Shown here: positions 3,001-30,735 of the stretch, in pieces | Layout of the letters: each line of letters starts with the position of its first letter | How positions within the stretch are numbered: the stretch's first letter is position 1 | Source: Protoeuglena noctilucae | Taxonomy: Eukaryota | NCBI GenBank assembly: GCA_958009085.1 | Contig: OY253672.1 | Coordinates: 620,001 to 684,000, forward strand | DNA length: 64,000 nucleotides | Direction: 5' to 3' | Notes under the pieces: model-generated | Told to the model about the DNA's origin: nothing | The model's database searches: none | The model's input: the letters and a program-made list of their open reading frames with translations, nothing else | Position numbers and translations under genes: made by a program

Positions 3001-6000
3001 CTGCGCCTTGCTCTAAAATTGGGTGACGACGTGCAGGTCATGCAGCTGGCGGGGCAGTGCTCGAAATCGGATCGAATCGAGGCGGCAAGGAGGCTGGAGG
3101 AGGCGGGGGATTTGGACAGGGCCGTGAGGCTGTACCAGCTGGGGGGGCACCAGGGGAAAGCACTGGTGAGGGGGGGAGCGTGTGGAGGGTTAGCCGAACC
3201 CATTCCCCCAGAACCTTTGCTTCTTCCCACCCACCCCACCCCACTCATTCCCCCAGGAGCTTTGCTTCCGCCTGGGCCGCTACAGCGCATTGGAGCAGAT
3301 CGCGTCTGAGCTGGACACCTCGTCCGACCCCAGCATTCTCCTCAAGTGCGCCAACTACCTTTTGGACCAGGGACAGCCCGCCAAGGCACTCAGGCGAGAC
3401 TGCCTGTGTGTTGTTGTGATGCAAGTCGCTACGAGGTGCAAGCTGTGCTATGCGATGTGCTCGGGAGTGGCGCAGTGTCCCCGCCACCTTGCTTGCCTTT
3501 ATACTCTTCTACTTAGTCTTGTTTCTCACCATCTGGTCTCCACCCTTTCAATCTCTCACTCGATTGTTACTCGTGCCTCACAACCCCTTTCATGTCAACT
3601 ATCAACCTTCCTACACCGCCCTGCATCTCCCCTATCATCTCCCCCTATCATCGCCCCGCAGGTACCTGGTGATGGCGGGTCAGGTGGAGAGGGCACTGGA
3701 GCTCTGTGAGTCGGGTCTGCAGGGTGCCACGTTGGATGAGGAGGTGGTGGAGTTGATGACGCCGGGGAAGGACAAGGGGACGGCGGAGGAGAGGTGAGGG
3801 GCATGGGGAGGTGGGCATGGGTGTGGTGGTGGTGGTGTGGTGGTAGAGGGGACGGCAGAGGAGAGGTGAGGAGTTTGGGGGGGAGAGGGGGGGGGTGGTG
3901 GTGGTAGAGGAGCGTAGAGTGGTCTATACATACAAACGTTTGACCCTTTCTCTTAGCAACGCCAACCATTCCAAGATCAACAACAAGTCACCCGGTCGTC
4001 ACCCCTCTGCAAAACAACTTTTCAAATCGTATCAAATCACACAGTTACCCCCACTCCCCCCTGCAGGGAGCGCATGCTCCTGCGCATCGGGGAGGCCTGC
4101 CTGCGCCAGGGCGCGTACCACCTGGCCTGCAAGAAGTTCACCCAGGCAGGGGACCGCAAGAGGGGCATGCGCGCTCTGCTGCGGTCGGGGGACAAGGACA
4201 AAATCATCTTCTTCGCCGGGGTGTCCAGGTGACCTGGCGTGGAGGCAGGGGGGAGGGAGACTTTGACTATTGTAACGGCTCGCGAGCGTTGTGTGATGCA
4301 TGCGTAGCCGTCATGGGTTATAGCAGCTCGTCTGAGTTCCCTCTACTGCTAGCTCCACTCTCATTTGCCCTTCTTACCACTCTGCCGCCTCACTTCAACT
4401 CCCCCTTCACTTGCCCCAGCCTCACTTGCCCCTCCCGCCACCCTGTTGCCTCGCAGGGACCGGGAGGTCTACCGCATGGCGGCCAACTTCCTGCAGGCGC
4501 TGGACTGGCGCAACGACCCCGAAGTGACCAAAAACATCATCGGGTTCTACACCAAGGCCAAGGACTTCGCGAGCCTGGCGTCGTTCTACGAGTCTTGCGC
4601 GCAGATGGAAATCGACGAATTCCGAGACTACGAGAAGGCGCTGCAGGCCATGCGCAACGCAGCCAAGTGAGTTTTGGTTATATGTAATTATGCGGGGAGT
4701 CGCGGCGGCGGATGGGAGGCGATGAGGGTGTTATTGCGCTTTGCGATGCGTGGCTGCGGCTCGCCAGTTGTTGCGCAATTAGCACCGATTGCACGCATTT
4801 GGTATCGGCGCAGGTACCTGGACAAGGCCGGCCCTGATCACGCCCTGGCCAAGGCGTCGCTGACGGACCGCCAGGTCATGGTCGAGCGGTACCTGCAGGT
4901 GCGACACCGTCGACACTGGCGACAAGCGAGCAGAGAATTCAAATACCCGCGTACTCTGCGCGCTCTTCTCACGCGATTACGCTTCTCGCACATCCCGGCT
5001 GTGTTCCTGAGCCTGTGTATTTTAGGTTATCTTCTCATCATCTCCCTGTCTCCCCAGGCCCGCGCCGTGCTGGCGCCAGACGCGGGCAACCCGGCCGCCG
5101 TGGCCGCAGCGACGCCCGAGGCGGTGGCGGAGGCGGAGAGGGCGTGCGTGAAGCTCATCAACGAGGCGCCTGAGGAGGCGAGGGGCACAGCGGGATTGGC
5201 CAGCGACGCGGTCAGCCATGCCCACCCACCCTTTGCGCATTGTCGCACAGTTGTAACCAACCCAACCAACCCTTGGTCTGCGCTCACCGCTCAGCCACCC
5301 TTGCGCACGGTTGCATTGTCACCAACCCAACCAACCCTTGGCCTGCGTTCACCTCTCAGCCACCCTTGCACATGGTCACACAGTTGTAACTACCACCCCC
5401 TGGTTTCCTTCCCCCTCCCCAGGTGGCCCCGCAGGAGGCGTGCATCCGCGTGGGCGACGTCTTTGCGATGCTGGTGGAGCACAAGCACGGGCAGGGGCAG
5501 CTGACCCAGGCGCACCTGCTGCTGCGGAAGATGCGGGAGAGGGGGCTCGTGCTGGCGCCCTACATCGACAGCAAGGCGAGCGAGTGCACTGTTGGGTGTG
5601 TTGTCTGGTGGCCCTGATTGCACCACCACAGACGCATCCTCATTGCATCACGCACGTCCCCTCATTGCGCACCACACCCACATGCCCCCGTCATCGCACT
5701 CCGCACACACACCACCTCTCATCGTACCACACATCACACACACACCACCCCTCATCACACCCCACACACACGACCCCTCACCGCACCTCTCACCGCAGCC
5801 CAACACAACACACCCACACACAAGGGCCCCCCCCTCGTTCCTCCCCAGATCCTCGCCGAGATCCTCGAGGCGGTGGGGGAGGCCCCCGATGCTCATGTCC
5901 CCAACCGGGACGCCCCTGAGGTCGAAGACGAGGTGGACTCGGATGTGGGGGCGGGGGCGGTGGATGAGAGCGTCGACTCGGGGACCGATGACGGCTTCTG

Positions 6001-18904: not shown

Positions 18905-19560
18905 ATGGACGAGAAGAGGCAAGAGATCATGGAGCTGCAGGTGCGACCGGCCGCGGGTTGTGGCCGTGCTCAGCAGAGGTGGCCCCGGTCTCGAGCCTGA
19001 TCGCTACCGCCGCCGTCACCAGGACGTCGTCGATGGGGCATTGCGTCGCGGCATCGATCTGGGCGCATGCGCGCCGTCTGCGCAGCCCCGAAATAGCAGA
19101 CCTGGTTGCGAGGCCCGACGCCGTCGCTCGTGCCCATCCCGCAGCGCAAGCTGCAAGAGATCGTGCAGCAAATCCAAGTGGTGGAGCGGCAAGGGATGGC
19201 GCACGCCCAGGAGGTCCGGCGGGCGGCGCTGGTGGGTGCCGAGTTGCAGGGGGTGCCGGAGGACGTCCAGCTGTACCAGTCCGTGGGGAAGGCGTACATC
19301 TCGACGACGAAGGCGTCGGTGATGGAGGCGAACGACCAAGCGCGCGTGGAGTCCACCAAAGCCATCGAGCAGCTCAAGGTGCGTGGGGGAGTGCCTCCTG
19401 AGAAGCGCGCCGCTTGGGCGTTCGCCGGAGCGCATCTGATAGACTGGCTGATGTGACGCGGCCGTGCGCAATGCAGGCGACGCGGGACAGGCTGGTGAAG
19501 GAGAAGGAGTCGGCGGAGGTCGACCTGCGGGAGCTCGCCAAGAGCATGGCCTCGGCGTGA
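18905..19560 (+). CDS. PFD1: Prefoldin subunit 1 (beta-type), 3 exons
   Basis: MDEKRQEIMELQ | RKLQEIVQQIQ...ELQGVPEDVQLYQSVGKAYI...AIEQLK | ATRDRLVKEKESAEVDLRELAKSMASA*. The YxSVGK hairpin motif lies between two coiled coils. Confidence 0.85.
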
Positions 19561-19766: not shown

Positions 19767-21482
19767 ATGACGCAGCCGGCGGTGGACGCGGGGCAGACGG
19801 CGTACACACATGAGGTGGCCCGTGTGTCGGAGCTGATTGCCAGGGCGGTCACGGCGATCAAGCGGAACGCATCAGGGAGGCCGTATATCGGAGGTGGGGC
19901 CTGGCTCCGGGCTCGCGGGCTCGCGGGGAGGAGCGCCCTCGAAGCGGGCGACTGCAACGGCGGTTATTTCAAATATCCGAGCGCCCCCTGCCCTCCTGTG
20001 CAGTGACGGCATGTCGCGAGGCGTTGAGCGCCATCTCGCTGGAGGTGGAGGGCCTGGAGGAGGCGCTGGCGGTGTGCGCGAGGCTGTCGGCCGCGCTGGC
20101 TGACATCGACGAGCTGGTCGCGGACCAGACGGAGCGCCTCGCGCACTACGAGCAGCTCGCGTCGGCTCATGCTACTGATTCAAGTCAACAGGATGCGACC
20201 ACGCACGGTGAGGATCGCGCGAACGGGCGCGGGAGGGCTCCTCTGTGCAGGTTGTCAGCTTCGCTATCAAACTGCGGCCGCCCTCCCGCCGCAGTGCCCG
20301 AGCCGCACGCCCCCGCCGTGAGGACACCGAGCGCCGGAGGCGTCCGCGAGCACACGACGCTGACGGTCGCGGCGAGCGACGCGGAGGAGGACGCCGGTGC
20401 CGGGCCCGGGGGGCCCCTTGCCGCCGCCTCGCCCCTGGTCAGCGGCTCGCCCCTCCTGAGCCCGACGCCCCTCGCGGCGGTTGCGGCGGCGTCTGCCGTC
20501 CCCGCTGCCGTCGACAGGCGAGCGTCGGCGGGGTCCTCCCGGGGCTCCACACCCGAGTTTGTGCTCCCGGACCTCAGCCGCCTGGGCATCTCGGCCGCGT
20601 CGCTGGCGCTCATACGGGGCGGCCAGGACGCGTGCGGGTCAGGCGCGGAGGGCGGCGTGGGCACTGCCACCGCCAGCGCTGGGCCGGGCACGCCCGACTT
20701 CTGCTTCCCTCAGCAGCCCCGGTCCCCGGTGAGGGCCAGAGTCTTCGCGTGCTGCAGGAGTTAGCAGGGTGGTATTTTGTGATGAGCTCATCTTGCCTCC
20801 TATAATGCAGGTTCGGGACGTCACTTGCCCCGCGACGCTCGGCCAGGAGTCCCCCGGCACGCCCGCCATCGCCGACCCACGCGGTGCTGCTCAGCCGCCC
20901 CTCACGCCCACCACGGCCCACATGCTGGTGAGTCGCCGGACAGGCGGGCGGCCACCTGCTGTCTATCTACTGTGTGGGAATTATCGCCACCAGCTTCCAC
21001 GCACGCAGTCGCGCGTCGTGGCTGCGTCGGCCGCCAAGCCCCCGCCGCTCTCGGCCGTCAAGCCGCGCCTCGCCACGGCGGTCAAGGGCAGGAACCCAGA
21101 CGCGGCGACGGCGGGGAGCCCGGGGCCCGCCACGGCCAGGCCACCCAGCGCCCTGCTGCAGGGGTTCGACGAGGTGTCCGGGCACGTCACCCCGGCGCGC
21201 CCGCCTTTGCGGGGCATCACCAACGTGGGCCCTGCCGCGACGGAGGTCTCCCACGCCCAGTACGCAACGCTGCCTGCCTTTCTGGCCTCGCAAGTGGCCC
21301 TGCCGGAGCTCAACGCCGCGCTGCGACGGTTCGCGTCCGCCGGGAGCAAGATGAGCGCCGAGGACCTGGCGGAGGGCGGCTCGCCCTCCAGAGGCAAGGC
21401 CATCGCGGCGGCCCTCATGCGCCTGGACTACATCGTCGCGGGCGGCATCGGCGGCGTGCGGACCTACTCCCTGCGCGGCTGA
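19767..21482 (+). CDS. SKA3: Spindle and kinetochore-associated protein 3-like (plant-type)
   Basis: N-terminal coiled coil, a PDLSRLGISAASLALI motif and an S/T-P-rich middle. The C-terminal domain VSHAQYATLPAFLASQVALPELNAAL...GKAIAAALMRLDYIV...VRTYSL resembles the plant SKA3 C-terminus. Confidence 0.65.
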
Positions 21483-21977
21483 CACGGCTGGCGCTGGCGT
21501 GTGTCGGCGAGTCTTCCCCTGTCGCTGCGCGTGCTAAGCGAGTATTCCTGGCCGTATTCCTGTTCGCGGAGTGGGCGTTTGAAGCCGCTTGCTTGCTCTC
21601 CGGAGGGTCATTCTGTCGACCTTGACCGGCGACCCTGGCGCGGCCGGCGCAGGCGGATTCTTGCCGGTCGGCGGGCTGTTATATCTACGTAAGATCTAGC
21701 CGATTTGTCGCCCCGCGTGGCGTTGTGCGCTCTTGAGACGGCGGGGAGCGACTCAAGCGGACTTGGCCGCAAAGCGAGCGACAGGCGACTCGCGGGGCCT
21801 CGCAGGGGCGCGAGGGCAGGCGAAGGTGAGCCAGTGGTGTGGGGAGTGGAAGTGGGTTGCGCGGAGGGGGCCGGGGACGGCGCGGAGGGTGCACTTGCAT
21901 GTTGGACACAGTCACCCGTCCTTTGTGCTGCTATCTTGCAGGCGGAGACGCCGTTAAGGGTGTAGAGGGGCCTAAAC

Positions 21978-24717
21978 ATGCACGAGGGCAAGGTGGTGGT
22001 CCACAACCTAGGAAATCAGACGGGCGTGGAGACGGCCGAGAAGATAGCTAAGGAACAGAACGCCGGGATTATCATGTTTCAGGAGGTTGAGAGGGGATCA
22101 GTCGATAGAATTTTTGAGATATATGGAGGACGAATGTATCGAGTGATTTTTGGTGTGGAAGGTACGGGGAGCAAAACTGGTAACCCCGGTTCTGCTCTCG
22201 TGACGATGGTTAATAAGGACATGTACGAATGCGATCAAGTGGACGTGGTGGGTCTTCCAGGTGAGATGTGCAAAGTAGCCAAGCAGCCAATGAGCTTTAA
22301 TAAACCGGCAGCAGCGACTGCTGACAACAAACATAAAATTATCAAAAAAGCAGTTGTTTGGTCACTGCTTGCAGACAACGATGAGGAAGAAGTATCGTTT
22401 CTCTCAAAAAAAGTCTTAAAGGCGAGAATAAGCCGCTGCAAGGAATGAAAAGAAAGATGAAGTCAACATTTCTCAGGAAATTGGGCATAATTCCAAGTAG
22501 GATGCTCGTCATCAAATGCACCCCAAAGTCGGGATCAAGGGAGTCGTTCCTCGCCGTCAACTACCACGGCTTCAACTGCCAATGGTCTACTGAAAGAGCA
22601 TGTAGGTGAGCTTCTGCAGCATTAAAAGTTTGGTACTAATTCGCAGGTAAGTAACTTGCAGGTGTTACTAATATTAAATTAAAAATGTTAAATTTAATTT
22701 TTAATGCTTTATTTTAGCCATGTAAGGCACTCTATATATTTTTGCACATAAGTTTTACATTTTTATAATTTACATGCTGCAAGGTGAGTAACTACGTAAA
22801 GCAATGTCATTTGACTTATTAAAGCATCATATTTTGCTCCAGGTTCTGGTCCCGGGCCTGCCATATTTTTGCCCAACTGAGGAGCAGCTATCAAATGCCT
22901 GTCCTCATTGGAGCCGACACCAACATCCATCTGGACGCAGAAGCCTCTTTTCGGCTGGGCAACTGGCCTCCAGGTAATTGTGGTATTCCACCCCCCTTGC
23001 GCCAGCACACAGACACTTTCGCTGTGCATTCGACAAGTGGCCGACAACCTTTTTGCAGCCACAGAAATGAACAAGCGGTGGTCGTGGAGGAGCGTCATGG
23101 TTCCCATCTACGAAATTACGAATCGGTTCACCGATGAGGAGGACAGGTTACAGTACAGGACGAGGGGCGTCATTGACTTCTTTGCAGTAGTCGATTCCAC
23201 GTGCAGCTCATCGCAGACAGCTGGCAGATGCATTGACTCCACGCACATCCATATTGCCAAGGTCGAGGTCTGCGGTGGATCGTATACAGCGGCACACGAG
23301 CCCCTGCTCGCGTCGTTCAAGATCTTCAAGGGTTACGATGGATGGCACAATGACTTCGAGCCGATGCGCTGCCTCTGGAACACGCCTTGCTCATGTGCTC
23401 CAGTTTCGGGACCTCGCAAAAGAATTGCGGCCCTTCTTGGAGAGCGGAAGGAACCTTTTACAAGAATCATTTTCCCTCCACAAGGGGTGAGCATTGACAA
23501 CAAGCACTTTGTATGTTTGCAATTGCCTTATATATTTTTGCTTTTTGCTTATTAGATACTGTTTTGTGGGTTTTTTGTGTTTTGTGGGCAAAGTTACTCG
23601 TCAATTAATTTTGCGCGCAGGCAAGTGCGGCAGCTGGGACGGCGGCGAGGGGGGCAGCTGAGCCAAGTGTAAACATGACGGTCACACCTGCAGCGGGAGG
23701 AGCACAGGTGCTTACTGTCAACAGCTGCCGATGTATGTCGTTCTGTATTTATATATGGTCTCCAAGAGCGTCAAAAAACGATCATAAATTTATTTGTCTG
23801 GTGACGCAGGTGTTGGAAATTAGCGAAGCAGGGCCCTCTCAGAGCCATGGCACGGCTGTGTCCCTTGAGAGGCGCATCAGGAATTTGGATTTGCAGGTAA
23901 AAGGCGCATTGTACTTTCCAGTTGCAAATGTCGAGCGTGCATATTGGTGCTCTTGTTAATGCGATGGACAGAAAATGGCATAATGTGAGAGCGCGTGTGT
24001 GCAATGCCCACAGTCCACGGCCACCAGCGGAGGGGTATTCCCTGTTAGGGCACCGGCCTCAAGCAATTTGGGGACAAGGGAGCCGGCCGTCAACGGGCGA
24101 CAGGCGCAAATTTGGCAGGTGCGCCTTGCAATTGGAGTGTCCGTGTCGGTGCAACGGGACGCACGGAGAGGTGCCGTCTTGCCAAAGTGCCGGGTGGGAA
24201 TGCCTTTGACGCAGCGGGAGTATTCTAGAGTGTGGTCCGTATATAGATGGTGGGTGGAAATGCCAGGTTTCGATTTTGACTTTCACAGCATGACAGCCGC
24301 CTTATGTTTTGCAGTTCAACACTGAGACCAAAAACTCCTACATGGGACGGCCTTTGAAACGAGGAACCGTCTCCACTTCGAACATGCCGCAAGTGAAAAG
24401 GTGAGTGTGAGGGTACTATAGGGGGCATTGGTTTTGGCTTCAGTGACAGTAGTATCTAGTTGTATCTTTTGCGCCCACCTTTCCTTTCACTCAAAATGCA
24501 GCGCATGTGTGCCGCTCTGCCTGCACGTCACCCAACACTAACTTCTCAGCCCTCTTCTGCGCATGCCAGGCTTTACACGGAAGGCAATTTGGACGAGATG
24601 ACTTCCGATGCCCTGAAGGACTTCCTCAAGCGATACAAATTGTCCAGAAGTGGGGACAAGCTCGACTTGATATTTCGCGTGTGCGACTACATTGCTGAAA
24701 TCAGCGCAGGACTTTAG
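21978..24717 (+). CDS. EEP (DNase I/AP-endonuclease-like) nuclease fused to a C-terminal SAP domain; 9 exons, one apparent frameshift in exon 2; AT-rich island
   Basis: Exons: 21978-22260, 22375-22605, 22843-22973, 23059-23486, 23621-23707, 23810-23896, 24014-24118, 24315-24400, 24570-24717. EEP motifs appear in order: VVVHNLGN, IIMFQEV, FLAVNYHG, VLIGADTN, VIDFFAV, AHEPLLASF. The SAP-like segment is LDEMTSDALKDFLKRYKLSRSGDKLDLIFRV. All junctions are in phase except for a 1-nt shortfall within 22385-22445. Confidence 0.7.
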
Positions 24718-25089
24718 AAAGCTTCAGATCTTGGCGTGGAATAATCACGCTGTGCTTCATATGCGTGCGTGCCTAGACAGGTTCATTCCAGCTTCGACGC
24801 GCATGCCATTTTTGAAAGCCAAATCATCTCACCGTCTGTGACACGGACATTGTGCTGCATCCCTGGCACGCGCGCGCGATTGCCCCACCCACCAGGCTGC
24901 CCCAGGCAACCACAGCCCCACCGCCCCCCTGCCACCATCATCTCCAAATCCGTCACTTTCCTCGCGCCCACACACATTTACGGTCCGGTGCGCACGCTCT
25001 GGAGAAACAAGCAAACACAAGACCCGGCCGGCGGGCCTCGTCCAAGCCGCGCGGGCCAGAGCGCCGGGGGAACGTCAGGAACGCCAGTC

Positions 25090-27433
25090 ATGACCGGCGG
25101 CAAGCGCAAGCGCGTGTGCGTGGTGGGCTCGGGCGCGGCGGGGATGGCCTGCGCGTGGAGCCTCGGCCGCTTCCCCGACCGGTTCGAGGTGGAGGTCTGG
25201 GAGGCCCTGCCGCAGCCCGGGGGAGTGGCAACGTCGCAGTCGTTGCGGTCGTCCAAGGACGGGGCCAACCTCGAGCTCAACGACCAAGTGCAGGTGCGTG
25301 GCGCGCTGGCAAACCACCTCTCCGCGGCGCTCGCGGCGCGCGCGGCGCTGTGGGCGGCGCGCGACGACCGTCATGCCAACGCACGCCTCGCGGCCGCCGG
25401 TCGAGGCGCCGCGACGCGCCCGCGGGCCTGCGCGTTCAGATTGCCCGGGCGAATGGCTCTCGCCATTAACCCGCGGCCGCGGCGCGGACGGGGACGCACG
25501 GCCGGCGCGCGCCGTCTGTCCTGCGCTCGAGCTGGCGGATTAAAAGGAATCCGCCGCCTCCGCTCGACGATACCGCTCGCGCGCCCCGGGAGGCAGCGCC
25601 CGTGGCACACGGATAGCGTCCTCCCGCGCGCGCAGGGGGGCGCGCCGAGCTACCGGAACAACGTGCTGTTTTTCCAAGAGTTTGGGTGCAAGACGCACAG
25701 CGTCATGATGAAAGTCTGCTTCGGCAAGGGGGAGTTTTCGTGGACCAACCACGCCGACTCGGCGCTCGTGCAGCGGCTGCACAAGGACATCGAGCGGTTC
25801 GGGCGCGTGCTGAAGTGGATTCACCGCTTTGAGCCGCTCTTCGTCTTCTTCCCGATTCACCGGGTGAGTTGCGCCCGCGGCGCGCGGCCTGCCGGTGGCA
25901 AGTGGGTGCGACATTGGGATCGTGCGACACCCGCGCGCGCCCGCCACACCCGCAGGTCCTGAGCATGTGGGGCTTCTCGAAGGACTTCGCGGACCACATG
26001 GTCTTCCCCCTGACGGCCCTCTTCTTCGGGACGGGCAACCAGACGCCATACGTGAGCGCGGCCATCATCGCCCGCGTCTTCCTCGACAAGGAGCTCGCGC
26101 TGTTCAAGTACTCGCCCGACCGGCTGCTGGACGGCATGCCGGAGATGTTCGCCTTCTCGAACCTGGGCCAGTCGTACCAGGCCATCGCCTCTCGCATCGG
26201 CGCCTCGGTCCTCTGCAACAAGGCCATCGCCAAGGTGCGCCGCACGCGCAAGGGCGTCACGGTGACGGACACGGACGGCAACGTGGCCGAGTTCGACGAC
26301 ATCGTGTTCACGTGCGACACCGAGACGACCCTGCGTGCCATGGGCGACGACGCGTCGTGGTTCGAGCGAAGGCTCCTGGGCAACGTCAGGTACTACGACG
26401 ACCTCATCGTCACGCACGAGGACGAGGTGAGAACCGACGACTGCTTGTTCTCGATATGGGGGTTGGGGGGCAGTCAACGCGCGATGGTGCGCGTTGGTGG
26501 GTCCCAGCAGCCAGCTGTCACTGCTTGCTTTTGACGCAGCCCCTCTTGTTTCCTGCCTGCAGTCGTACATGCAGGCTCACTATGAGATGGACCCGAAGCT
26601 CAACGACATGTACTTCATCCGCACGGACCCCAAGAACCGGAAGCGCGTCGAGATGTCGTTTAACCTGTGCCACTACCAGCCCCACCTGGCCAAGGCGGCC
26701 GGGCGCAACCTGTACCAGACCATCTTCCTCGACGCTAAGGGGAAGGTGAGGGGCGGCAGCAGGGGTGACGTAGACATGGCGGCTCGAGTGCCACCATCGG
26801 CTCCAGTAGACAGGTCTGCTGACACCAAACAGTGACACTCGGACTGAGCTTAATGAGCTCACTCGTGCTCTGACTTGCCCCGCCTTGCTGCAGGAGCACT
26901 GGACGTACGACGAGCTGGACAAGAAGTCGGTGCTGATGGAGCGGTGGACGCACCAGTTCGCGCACACGTGGACGCACTTCGCCTTCTGGGTGCCCTTCAT
27001 CCGATTCATCCAGGCAAGCCGTCGCCGCCACTGCACCCACAGCGCCACTGCTGGGCCGACAGCACACATGGGGTGCGTTGGTGCGTTCTGCTGACGCGTC
27101 GACACCCACCCACCTGCCCGTACACCCTCTCTCCCCTCGCAGGGGTCCCGAGGCGCGTGGTACGCGGGGGCCGTGACGCTCGTCAACACGCACGAGGTGG
27201 CGGTGATGTCGGGGCTGGCGGTGGCGCACCGACTCGGGGCACCCTACCCCTTCGCGCACGACCCCCTGGCCTTCTCTCAGATGAAGGTGTACATGTCGAT
27301 CGTGCACGGGGTCCGGCTGCGGCCCCAGGACTGTTCGTCTGAGGGCACGTCTTTCGCCAAGGGCCAAACGGACGGCAAGGGCGCCACAGGCGCACCCACG
27401 CAGCGGGCAGGGCAGGGACAGGCATCCGGCTAA
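25090..27433 (+). CDS. FAD/NAD-binding oxidoreductase (flavin amine-oxidase-like), 6 exons
   Basis: Rossmann motif RVCVVGSGAAGMACAWSL...EVWEALPQPGG, then FPLTALFFGTGNQTP, and C-terminal WYAGAVTLVNTHEVAVMSGLAVAHRLGAPYPF. Stop is TAA at 27431-27433. Confidence 0.85.
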
Positions 27434-28061: not shown

Positions 28062-30735
28062 TCACTCGAGGTTGGGGAAGGTGAGGGCGCAGGCCTCCTC
28101 GATGCCGCGGATCTTGGAGATCTCCGCCAGGACCTCGTCCGAGACGACCTCGTCGACGCCCACGGCCATGATGGCCTCGGTGCGCTTGGCGCGGCGGCCG
28201 ACAGTCATGAAGGAGATGTTGATGTTGTGACCGCTGAGGGTGGTGCCCAGGGTGCCGATGACGCCTGGCTGGTCGCGCTGCTTGGTGAGGATGACCGACT
28301 CGCTCATCTCCACCTCCACGTCGGTCGTGCCCACGCGCGTGATGAAGGGGGAGCCCTTGATCACCGCGCCCGCCAGCTCGATGCGCCCGGCACCGTTCAG
28401 GCACCCGCTGAACTTGGGCTTGGCCGCCACCTCCACCGACACGCTGGACAGCAGGTCGCGCGACGTGGCCTTCACCACCGTCTCGACCACCTCGATGTTG
28501 TACTGCTCGGCCAGGTAGTCGGCGTTCACCAGGTTCACGTTCTGGTCCGTGATCGACTCGAGGATGCCCTTGAGGATGTTGGCACGCAGGAGGCGCGTGT
28601 CCAGGTCGTCGCCGCGGGGGGACGCGTACGTCACGCGCAGCTGGCCCAGGCCCCCGCTGCCCGCCAGCAGCTGTACCACCGCGGAACCGAGACCCTGCGA
28701 GGAGTACGAGGAGGGCGACAAAGGCTTCTCAGGGCGTCCGGTGCGTGCATCGCACGCAGCCGACGACAATCGCTCGCCGGCCGCTGTCGTGCACTGCAGC
28801 AGCGGACCTGGCCAACCAGCCACCCATGACTCTCCTGCAGCGTCCTTCTCTCACCTCGGCCAGCGCCACGTACGGCTGCAGCTCCGCCAGGACCTCCTTG
28901 GGCACCATGGGCGCGTTGACTGCCGTAGAGGCCAGCTCGCCCTGGAGCGCGTTCACCACCGCCTCCGCCACCTCCACCGCCACGGCCTCCTGGGCCTCGA
29001 CCGTGGAGGCGCCCAGGTGCGGCGTGCAGATCACGCTGTCGAGCTTGAGCTGCGGGGGGTGGGCACGGGCAGCGTTGGGGCACGGAGGGTCTCTGTGTGC
29101 GGGGGTGCCACCCTGGCTGGCCCATGACCAGGGCTGCGGCGGCGCACCAGGGGGTTGTCCGCCTGCACGGGCTCCTCGGAGAACACGTCCAGCGCGGCGC
29201 CAGCGATGTGGCCGCTCTCGAGGGCCTTTGCGAGGGCGATTTCGTCGATCACGCCGCCGCGCGCCACGTTGATGATGCGGGCGCCCTTCTTCATCTTGGC
29301 CAGCGCCTCCTCGTTGATAAGGTTCTTGGTCGAGTCGAGCAGGGGCATGTGGAGGGAGAAGAAGTCCGCCGTCTTGAGGGCTGCGAGGGAGGGGCATGGG
29401 ACGTGCGGGGTTGCAGCAGGAGGGCTGCCTGCCACGAGCAAGGGTGCGATCACGCTGCATCGTGGGCCCCGGCTCGTCCTCACCCGTCTCGAAGTCGACC
29501 ATCTCGACGCCGAGGGCCTTGGCACGCTCGGCGGGGGCATAGGGGTCGTAGGCAATGACACGCATGCCGAGGCCCTTGGCGCGGCGGCCGACCTCGGACC
29601 CGACCTTGCCGAAGCCGATGACGGCGACGGTCTTGCCGATCATCGACGCCCCGACGAACTTGGTCCGCTTCCACTCGCCCTTCTTCACCGACGCATTGGC
29701 CTGCAGGTGGTCACATGGGTGGTGCCGGCATGTGTCATCATCCAACCAGCGAGGTATAGAGAAACTTGTTGTCAGAGAGTCAGCGACTGCGACGTTGCTG
29801 GACTGTTGCTGGACGTGGGAGCGTGATTGCCACAGTGCAATGCAGAGGGCCTTGCGAGGGACAGGTGTGCGCCTCGGGCGTCACCTGGGGCACCATGCGG
29901 GCGAGGGAGCAGAGGAGGGCGATGCCATGCTCAGCGGCCGCGACCGTGTTGGCCGTGGGGGCGTTGACGACGAGGCAGCCGAACTCGGTCGCGGCCTTCA
30001 AATCCACGTTGTCGACACCCACCCCCGCACGGCCGACGACCTGGAGGCGGCCCTTGCCGGCCTCGATCACGTCGCGCGTGATCTTGGTGCCCGAGCGCAC
30101 GATCACGGCGTCCACGAGGGGCATCTTGGCCTTGAGCTGGTCTGCAGAGTGGGACCGGGGTCACACGGTGCGGTGCTGCAGTCGGGCGATCCGCGGCACA
30201 CGAGGATGCGTGTGTCGGGAGGAGAGCGGAGGCTTGGAGGGCAAAGCTGTGGCCGCAGCGCTCGAGGGTGGCTGCGGAATGCAGCGCTGCGGGCATGGCC
30301 TCACCGGGCGTGAGGTCGTACGAGCAGTCCACGTTGGCGAACTGCTTGAGGAGATCGAGACCGGCGTCGCCGAGCTTCTCCGCCACGAGGATGGTGGGCT
30401 TGCCGCCGTCGGCGCGAGCTGCGGGCAGAGGGACGCACCGGTGATCTGCGCCGGGCAGGTTCCGCGGGCTAGATCGGACCTTAGATGCCACGCGCAATCG
30501 TTGCTCTGTGACAATGCGTGGTCGTTTGTCGCAGCGAGGCTCCCGGGAGACGACGACAGTTGAGCGCGGGCGCGATTCCATGTGCGCAGGACAGAAAGGC
30601 AAGGGGCAGCCAGCAGGGCGCTGGGATGCGGCCGTGGCCGGAACCGACGATGAATTAAAGGACTGAAGGAGGCGCAGGCGTCGAGAACGCCGGCGCTCGC
30701 GCCCTGGATCGCGGGGACTCACCCACGGCAGCCAT
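28062..30735 (-). CDS. serA: D-3-phosphoglycerate dehydrogenase, plastid-type, with C-terminal ACT domain
   Basis: VVGRAGVGVDNVDL, NAPTANTVAAAEH, IGFGKVGSEV, INVARGGVIDE, TPHLGASTVEAQ and the ACT-domain segment DQPGVIGTLGTTLSGHNINISFM. Confidence 0.95.

Follow-up and report, generated by a model that had tools for sequence, protein, structure and literature searches.

The DNA considered here is a 64,000-nt stretch (the window) of the genome assembly of Protoeuglena noctilucae (GCA_958009085.1, contig OY253672.1, positions 620,001 to 684,000 of the forward strand), and all coordinates are counted from its first letter. It contains a low-GC island occupied by a single multi-exon gene on the + strand, which can be read from the DNA as an N-terminal domain of the endonuclease/exonuclease/phosphatase (EEP) type, a linker, and a C-terminal SAP domain. 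This gene is real, transcribed, and spliced, and the composition of its body is foreign to that of the genome. The first-pass annotation, made from the letters of the DNA, had placed an AT-rich island at 21890..24800 and had drawn in it a frame of about 530 aa running through eight GT-AG introns.

Sequencing runs containing this stretch were found for a cultured organism (4 runs, all sampled words present), and among marine metagenome DNA (4 runs, 0.47-0.99 of the sampled words) and marine metatranscriptomes (3 runs, 0.07-0.33). Splice joints were read from the assembled contigs of three RNA runs (X9, X10, and X12) and one isolate DNA run (X1). X9 and X12 belong to one study, and the contigs display the dominant path and drop minor isoforms. 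Six GT..AG joints occur in the RNA contigs, five in X9 and one in X12, and none in the DNA contig of X1. Frames and GT/AG sites permit nine coding exons and eight introns, giving 1575 nt and 524 aa. The RNA matches introns 2, 3, 4, and 8 of the earlier model exactly and intron 1 by its donor only, and it adds an intron in the 5′ untranslated region (UTR), at 21826-21941, that the model lacked. The claimed frame can be drawn from the DNA, but the acceptor of intron 1 differs in the RNA, and the sole observed transcript form is broken in frame. The RNA cover of X10 and X12 leaves large parts of the gene bare, and introns 5-7 lie outside the cover of all three RNA runs, which does not tell against the exons concerned. 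The gene is composed as follows.

21700..21825, + strand: 3′ part of the GC-rich, non-coding first exon; seen in X9 contig record 8 over 21700-21823, joined there to 21940, with ~134 nt more of the contig upstream
21826..21941, + strand: 5′UTR intron, GT..AG, 116 nt (X9 joint 21823>21940, cut +2)
21942..22260, + strand: exon 1, with ATG at 21978 and the N-terminal third of the putative EEP domain, N10 at 22005-22007 and E36 at 22083-22085 (RNA contig)
22261..22374, + strand: intron 1 as spliced in the RNA, GT..AG, 114 nt, open in frame 0 (X9 joint 22257>22372, cut +3)
22375..22605, + strand: exon 2 as spliced in the RNA, with H155 (NYH) at 22565-22567 (X9 contigs 8 and 9 cover 22372-22492 and 22521-22603)
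22606..22842, + strand: intron 2, 237 nt, GC 0.29 (X9 joint)
22843..22973, + strand: exon 3, with GADTN, D193 at 22916-22918 and N195 at 22922-22924 (RNA contig)
22974..23058, + strand: intron 3, 85 nt (X9 joint 22970>23056, cut +3)
23059..23486, + strand: exon 4, end of the putative EEP domain, with D251 at 23175-23177, A289-A290-H291 at 23289-23297, and behind these a tail that contains Cys (RNA contig)
23487..23620, + strand: intron 4, 134 nt, GC 0.35 (X9 joint)
23621..24118, + strand: predicted linker exons 5 (23621-23707), 6 (23810-23896), and 7 (24014-24118), from frames and GT/AG sites; RNA only at 23621-23700, where X9 contig 9 ends (23700)
23708..23809 and 23897..24013, + strand: predicted introns 5 and 6, from frames and GT/AG sites
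24119..24314, + strand: predicted intron 7, 196 nt, from frames; the match of X12 contig 6 ends at 24311 with 3 letters over, a weak hint
24315..24400, + strand: exon 8, where the linker ends in a basic stretch (X12 contig 6 covers 24311-24398 and joins 24568)
24401..24569, + strand: intron 8, 169 nt (X12 joint 24398>24568, cut +2)
24570..24788, + strand: last exon, with SAP at ~24589-24693, stop TAG at 24715-24717, and a 3′UTR reaching at least 24788 (Pfam SAP; X12 contigs 6 and 7)

X10 also has unspliced contigs, across 21714-21979 (over the 5′UTR intron) and inside intron 8 (24406-24574), which represent pre-mRNA or carried-over DNA. Within 21000-25500, nothing of note was found among Rfam families or tandem repeats.

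The composition signal is strong and sharp. In 500-nt windows, the mean GC of the 64 kb is 0.650 (standard deviation 0.054), and values below 0.56 are confined to 22001-25000, with a minimum of 0.398. A two-state likelihood fit sets the island at 21895-24860, nearly the limits first annotated, with a GC of 0.49 inside vs 0.68 in the flanks. The switch takes ~100 nt at either edge and spans exactly one gene body: the left edge falls within the first (5′UTR) intron, while the right side reaches the 3′UTR. The non-coding first exon is host-like, with a GC of 0.70-0.73. At third codon positions, GC (GC3) is 0.608 for the island coding sequence vs 0.84-0.97 in six exon pieces of two neighbor genes. 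Island exons have a GC of 0.48-0.67, and its introns 0.29-0.55 (pooled 0.433), vs 0.60-0.75 for host intron-like stretches. These contrasts in GC, GC3, and intron GC bear out the non-host composition first claimed for the island. The ratio of observed to expected CpG is 0.83 in the island vs 0.97 outside, and since this depletion is mild, deamination does not explain the shift in GC. Intron 2, which exceeds every other part of the island in AT content, contains an imperfect AT-rich palindrome at 22668-22717, its 30-nt arms being 70% complementary.

The EEP and SAP domains

The EEP domain was assessed against 41 bacterial PF03372 domains, comprising Escherichia coli XthA with two paralogues (which we take to be YbhP and YafD), ExoIII relatives, and 29 varied domains from five genomes. 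In hhalign, residues 1-300 of the spliced protein align to this profile with a score of 39.5 (P 2.5e-5, probability 75%, 214 columns), a value reached by 0 of 108 shuffles (mean 13.2, standard deviation 2.2, maximum 21.5); the reversed sequence scores 15.8. Both halves of the domain add to the score. Exon 1 alone gives 27.4 (shuffles 11.5 ± 2.2), and the tail after the domain gives no signal (10.9). When the exons are aligned separately, they fall in collinear order, exon 1 on the QE motif (P 0.0017), exon 3 on GDFN (P 0.073), and exon 4, through AAHEP, on SDH (P 0.15). Protein-language features of exon 1 also point to PF03372 clusters (22 of 30 matches, score 0.96). Pairwise phmmer comparison with three, and later all 41, EEP sequences gave no signal.

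With XthA as the first row of the alignment, its residues N7, E34, Y109, D151, N153, D229, S257, D258, and H259 correspond to N10, E36, H155, D193, N195, D251, A289, A290, and H291 of the protein. The motif order read at first from the letters (HN, QE, NYH, GADTN, ID, HxP) is thus borne out, and so is the replacement of S-D-H by A-A-H. Seven of the eight catalytic columns are kept (N10, E36, H155, D193, N195, D251, and H291). The eighth, that of D258, holds A290 here, whereas all references extending to this column have Asp. From the strand with GSALV to the one that leads into NYH, the chain forms a loop whose length varies with the splice model, from 28 to 51 residues.

The Y109 column separates two groups of references, with Tyr in 17 of 17 ExoIII-like domains and His in 22 of the 24 others. 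The protein carries H155 at this position, and it scores 30.0 (P 0.0012) against a sub-profile of the His-type domains vs 18.1 (P 0.094, inside the shuffle range) against that of ExoIII. To judge from these alignments, the N-terminal domain is a very divergent EEP domain of the His type and not of the ExoIII/APE type. With H155 and this ExoIII sub-profile value, it is not an orthologue of ExoIII/APE or of plant ARP. The first-pass annotation would have been refuted by synteny with an orthologue of a known repair enzyme, and this was not found: the domain is not ExoIII/APE-type and has no detectable sequence relatives.

At the C-terminal end, the last exon matches Pfam SAP PF02037 over profile positions 2-36 of 37 (E 2.7e-5), at 24.1 bits vs a cut-off of 23.9, so that the terminal SAP domain proposed earlier passes by a small margin. 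Its alignment to the SAP structure of MKL1 (2kvu) is weak, though full-length (41 residues, E 0.31). Between the two domains, residues 355-476 (~120) form a low-complexity linker in which A, G, S, P, T, Q, E, K, R, and N make up 78%. The order of EEP, linker, and C-terminal SAP that had been proposed is thereby supported.

Among known systems, the protein is closest to the His-type EEP hydrolases of PF03372 (the two E. coli paralogues and 22 other bacterial domains), with which it shares the ordered N-E-H-D-N-D-H set and the better sub-profile score. It differs from them by Ala in place of Asp at the D258 column, by the 28-51-residue loop, by the C-terminal SAP, and by having neither a single-exon Pfam match nor a sequence relative. 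ExoIII and APE1, including plant ARP, have in common with it the EEP motifs and the combination of EEP with SAP, but carry Tyr where it has His155. Plant ARP carries its SAP domain at the N-terminus, the opposite end from that seen here, and Ku70 carries one at the C-terminus. The 35-residue helix-extended-helix motif is shared with the SAP domains of Ku70 and MKL1 (2kvu), albeit at a marginal score; the partner there is the Ku70 core or a transcription co-factor, whereas here it would be a nuclease-type fold. Full-text literature searches pairing the SAP domain with EEP nucleases returned no paper, and where SAP was combined with the AP endonuclease ARP of Arabidopsis, it came up just in the title of a cited work on PARP2. 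The protein would add the order EEP-then-SAP and the Ala at a conserved Asp to a nuclease superfamily that is well studied.

The roles of the catalytic residues are known from work on ExoIII and APE1. By homology, the protein would act as a metal-dependent phosphodiesterase: SAP would tether it to DNA, E36 would hold a Mg2+ ion, and the D251-H291 pair, together with D193, N195, N10, and H155, would cleave a DNA phosphodiester. The loss of the second acidic ligand (A290) might leave this activity weaker or change its metal preference.

Splicing of intron 1 and the reading frame

In the RNA, donor 22261 is joined to acceptor 22375, which lies 11 nt upstream of the in-frame acceptor 22386. Three-frame translation of the RNA-supported mRNA shows that the frame opened by ATG 21978 stops at TGA 22446-22448, giving an open reading frame (ORF) of 118 aa that includes N10 and E36. 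The remainder of the domain lies in a second frame, in which the first ATG (22445-22447) begins a 410-aa ORF. The stop of the 118-aa ORF and the start of the 410-aa ORF overlap as ATGA at 22445-22448, which may be due to chance or may be a vestige of a once-continuous frame.

One frame of 501-527 aa can be restored by five splice variants. Three of these use the intron-1 acceptors 22386, 22422, or 22443; the fourth links 22477 to an intron-1 donor farther on, after 22360; and the fifth removes an additional 80-nt intron (22397-22476) and leaves a 22-nt mini-exon. The EEP score is 39.5-42.6 under all five, and thus does not discriminate between them. Frame 0 also contains no stop over 62 codons, from intron 1 into exon 2 (22260-22445), a run equalled in 293 of 20000 shuffles. 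The predicted introns 3, 5, and 7 are likewise open when read on from the upstream exon. A full-length protein of 501-524 aa needs a splice form that is absent from the RNA contigs. The full-length enzyme might arise through a minor form, with acceptor 22386 or by removal of the additional 80-nt intron (22397-22476); failing this, the gene would be decaying.

On balance, it seems fairly probable that this is a real gene of foreign composition that encodes an EEP-SAP protein and still needs an unobserved isoform to work. Several results weigh against this reading. None of the five in-frame variants is seen in the RNA contigs, which display dominant paths only, and every joint is supported by one assembled contig at a depth of 3.5-6.4. 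As regards the domain, the C-terminal half (residues 115-300) is weak in hhalign (19.8, shuffles 13.1 ± 2.1), and the protein-language features of exon 4 fall in unnamed clusters only, with a low recognition value of 1647. PF03372 is unmatched by any of the nine exons in Pfam searched exon by exon up to E 10, and a hidden Markov model built from the same alignment is not significant in hmmsearch (4.9 bits, rank 2 of 1000 sequences including 998 shuffles). Exons 1 and 4 are also unmatched among PDB sequences by phmmer. The two protein variants known, described below, are both non-synonymous and give no sign of purifying selection. Lastly, neither a donor, a relative, nor an empty site was found, so that it is the composition that marks the gene as foreign.

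The same break in frame may be read as the mark of a transcribed pseudogene, in which a once-continuous EEP-SAP frame was lost between 22385 and 22448 and the product is no enzyme but just an N-terminal fragment of 118 aa. This account is compatible with a foreign origin, and we regard it as possible though rather unlikely. It is favored by the frame-broken state of the sole observed transcript form and by the sequence ahead of the two acceptors, with a pyrimidine-rich tract before the used site (22375) and a purine-rich stretch before the in-frame site (22386). The replacement of an otherwise invariant Asp by A290, the non-synonymous nature of both variants, and the lack of relatives that would show constraint point the same way. 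However, the other seven catalytic columns, the SAP domain, and all other exon frames are intact across 1.5 kb, and several splice forms restore the frame with undiminished EEP scores. Assembled contigs would also omit a minor isoform, and the 62-codon opening over intron 1 fits a coding past or present rather than a long decay. If the gene were a decaying transcribed relic, the finding would be an ordinary one. In either case, the frame-breaking splice form illustrates that spliced readings made from DNA alone need RNA evidence.

Origin of the island

Relatives of the protein were sought widely. An exhaustive phmmer search with exon 4 over 1.84 billion representative proteins returned only the gene's own metagenomic ORF fragment, and word-based protein searches, run with exons 1 and 4 and the 156-aa ORF at 21978-22445, returned nothing besides the protein itself. 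Viral-contig scans with exons 1, 4, and 9, which reach close relatives only, gave no match. Five exons searched against NCBIfam, PHROGs, and PADLOC found nothing below E 0.06 (PHROGs nothing below E 0.19). The protein itself forms two clusters, each with one variant and present on 15-16 contigs. One variant exchanges T for S through A>T at 23118 and is found on 16 contigs and also in the X9 RNA contig; the other, L93P (~22254-22256), occurs on 2 contigs.

The composition of the gene makes a foreign origin plausible. The introns are the most AT-rich part and thus most likely arrived with the gene, in which case the donor would be eukaryotic or an intron-bearing nuclear virus. The most likely course would be that the gene body and its AT-rich introns were acquired from an unsampled source of lower GC, either another eukaryote or such a virus, and landed behind a host-like, GC-rich 5′ exon. 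If the body did come with its introns, this would be a clean transfer of a single intron-bearing gene into a marine alga, a kind of event that is hard to document; comparison with the genomes of sister lineages or of marine viruses would allow it to be dated and traced.

A native, fast-evolving lineage gene would require no transfer, its low GC being the product of local mutation or recombination, such as an escape from GC-biased gene conversion. No donor, relative, or insertion scar was found that would contradict this, host-like character extends to the first exon and presumably to the promoter, and the host machinery splices the gene at canonical sites. Nevertheless, we think such a history improbable, since composition switches within ~100 nt at each end of exactly one gene body, with introns down to a GC of 0.29 beside host values of 0.60-0.75 and a GC3 of 0.61 vs 0.84-0.97. 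The mild CpG depletion (0.83 vs 0.97) makes deamination insufficient as a cause. Outside the island, a single 500-nt window of the 64 kb has a GC below 0.58 (3501-4000, 0.572).

An origin as a remnant of a mobile element is more doubtful still, whether as the endonuclease of a retrotransposon lacking long terminal repeats or as an integrated fragment of a giant virus or mirusvirus. LINE (long interspersed nuclear element) endonucleases have the EEP fold, and the APE-type enzymes of this group share with the present gene a DNA-acting EEP domain in a foreign-looking insert. They also have Tyr at the column where the 17 ExoIII-like references have it and where this protein has His. The island holds many spliceosomal introns and leaves no room for a reverse transcriptase: its longest ORF from stop to stop, of 224 aa, is exon 4, and its long ORFs are all exons of this gene, in agreement with the first-pass statement that neither a reverse transcriptase nor a transposase is encoded. 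On the viral side, marine mirusviruses frequently carry spliceosomal introns, and integrated mirusvirus genes have been reported in many eukaryotes, in a paper with no mention of SAP or exonuclease (PMC12768974). Such intron-rich viruses and the foreign composition would suit a viral remnant. However, a search for terminal, inverted, and target-site repeats around the island came up empty, no second copy occurs within the window, the viral-contig scans are empty within their reach, and ordinary host genes lie on both flanks. The mobile-element or virus derivation proposed in the first-pass annotation is thus unsupported.

The preferred reading, of a foreign gene needing another isoform, can be extended into a fuller but speculative scenario, to which we give little credence. 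An intron-bearing nuclease gene from a mirusvirus-like virus or another eukaryote would have been plugged in behind a host 5′ exon, with the splicing of intron 1 now acting as its gate. The common form (22375) would yield a harmless split product, and a rare form would yield a full-length, DNA-tethered EEP nuclease with an unusual active site that is one acid short.

A misassembly or contamination that joined DNA of another organism into the contig has only the composition break in its favor and is scarcely credible, as an isolate DNA contig (56.6 kb, run X1) carries the whole 3.3-kb stretch with both junctions and is identical across all 3301 bases, the four metagenome DNA runs contain it as well (0.47-0.99 of sampled words), and an RNA contig splices the GC-rich exon onto island exons; this RNA contig and the isolate contig leave no room for a chimeric assembly.

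Flanking genes

The island had been placed between SKA3 and an FAD oxidoreductase. The downstream neighbor is indeed a NAD/FAD-binding, amine-oxidase-like oxidoreductase, but the SKA3 label of the upstream gene found no support in Pfam. A metagenome scan seeded with the oxidoreductase returned two loci. The first (L005) holds a distant relative, 66% identical, whose ~920 nt before the gene start have a GC of 0.71-0.79 and are without an island; it has no other gene in common with the window. This locus is too distant, and its upstream part too short, to be informative on an insertion or an empty site. The second (L006) is unrelated low-GC DNA. The oxidoreductase intron at 26427-26559 (133 nt) is absent from the relative in L005 (2229-2231), which indicates that intron positions differ between relatives. 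Upstream of the gene labelled SKA3, an exon-sized ORF at 19097-19453 (+ strand) matches Pfam Prefoldin_2 (E 1e-7), and at 28729-29880 (- strand) lies an ORF matching D-isomer-specific 2-hydroxyacid dehydrogenase domains (E 2e-17).

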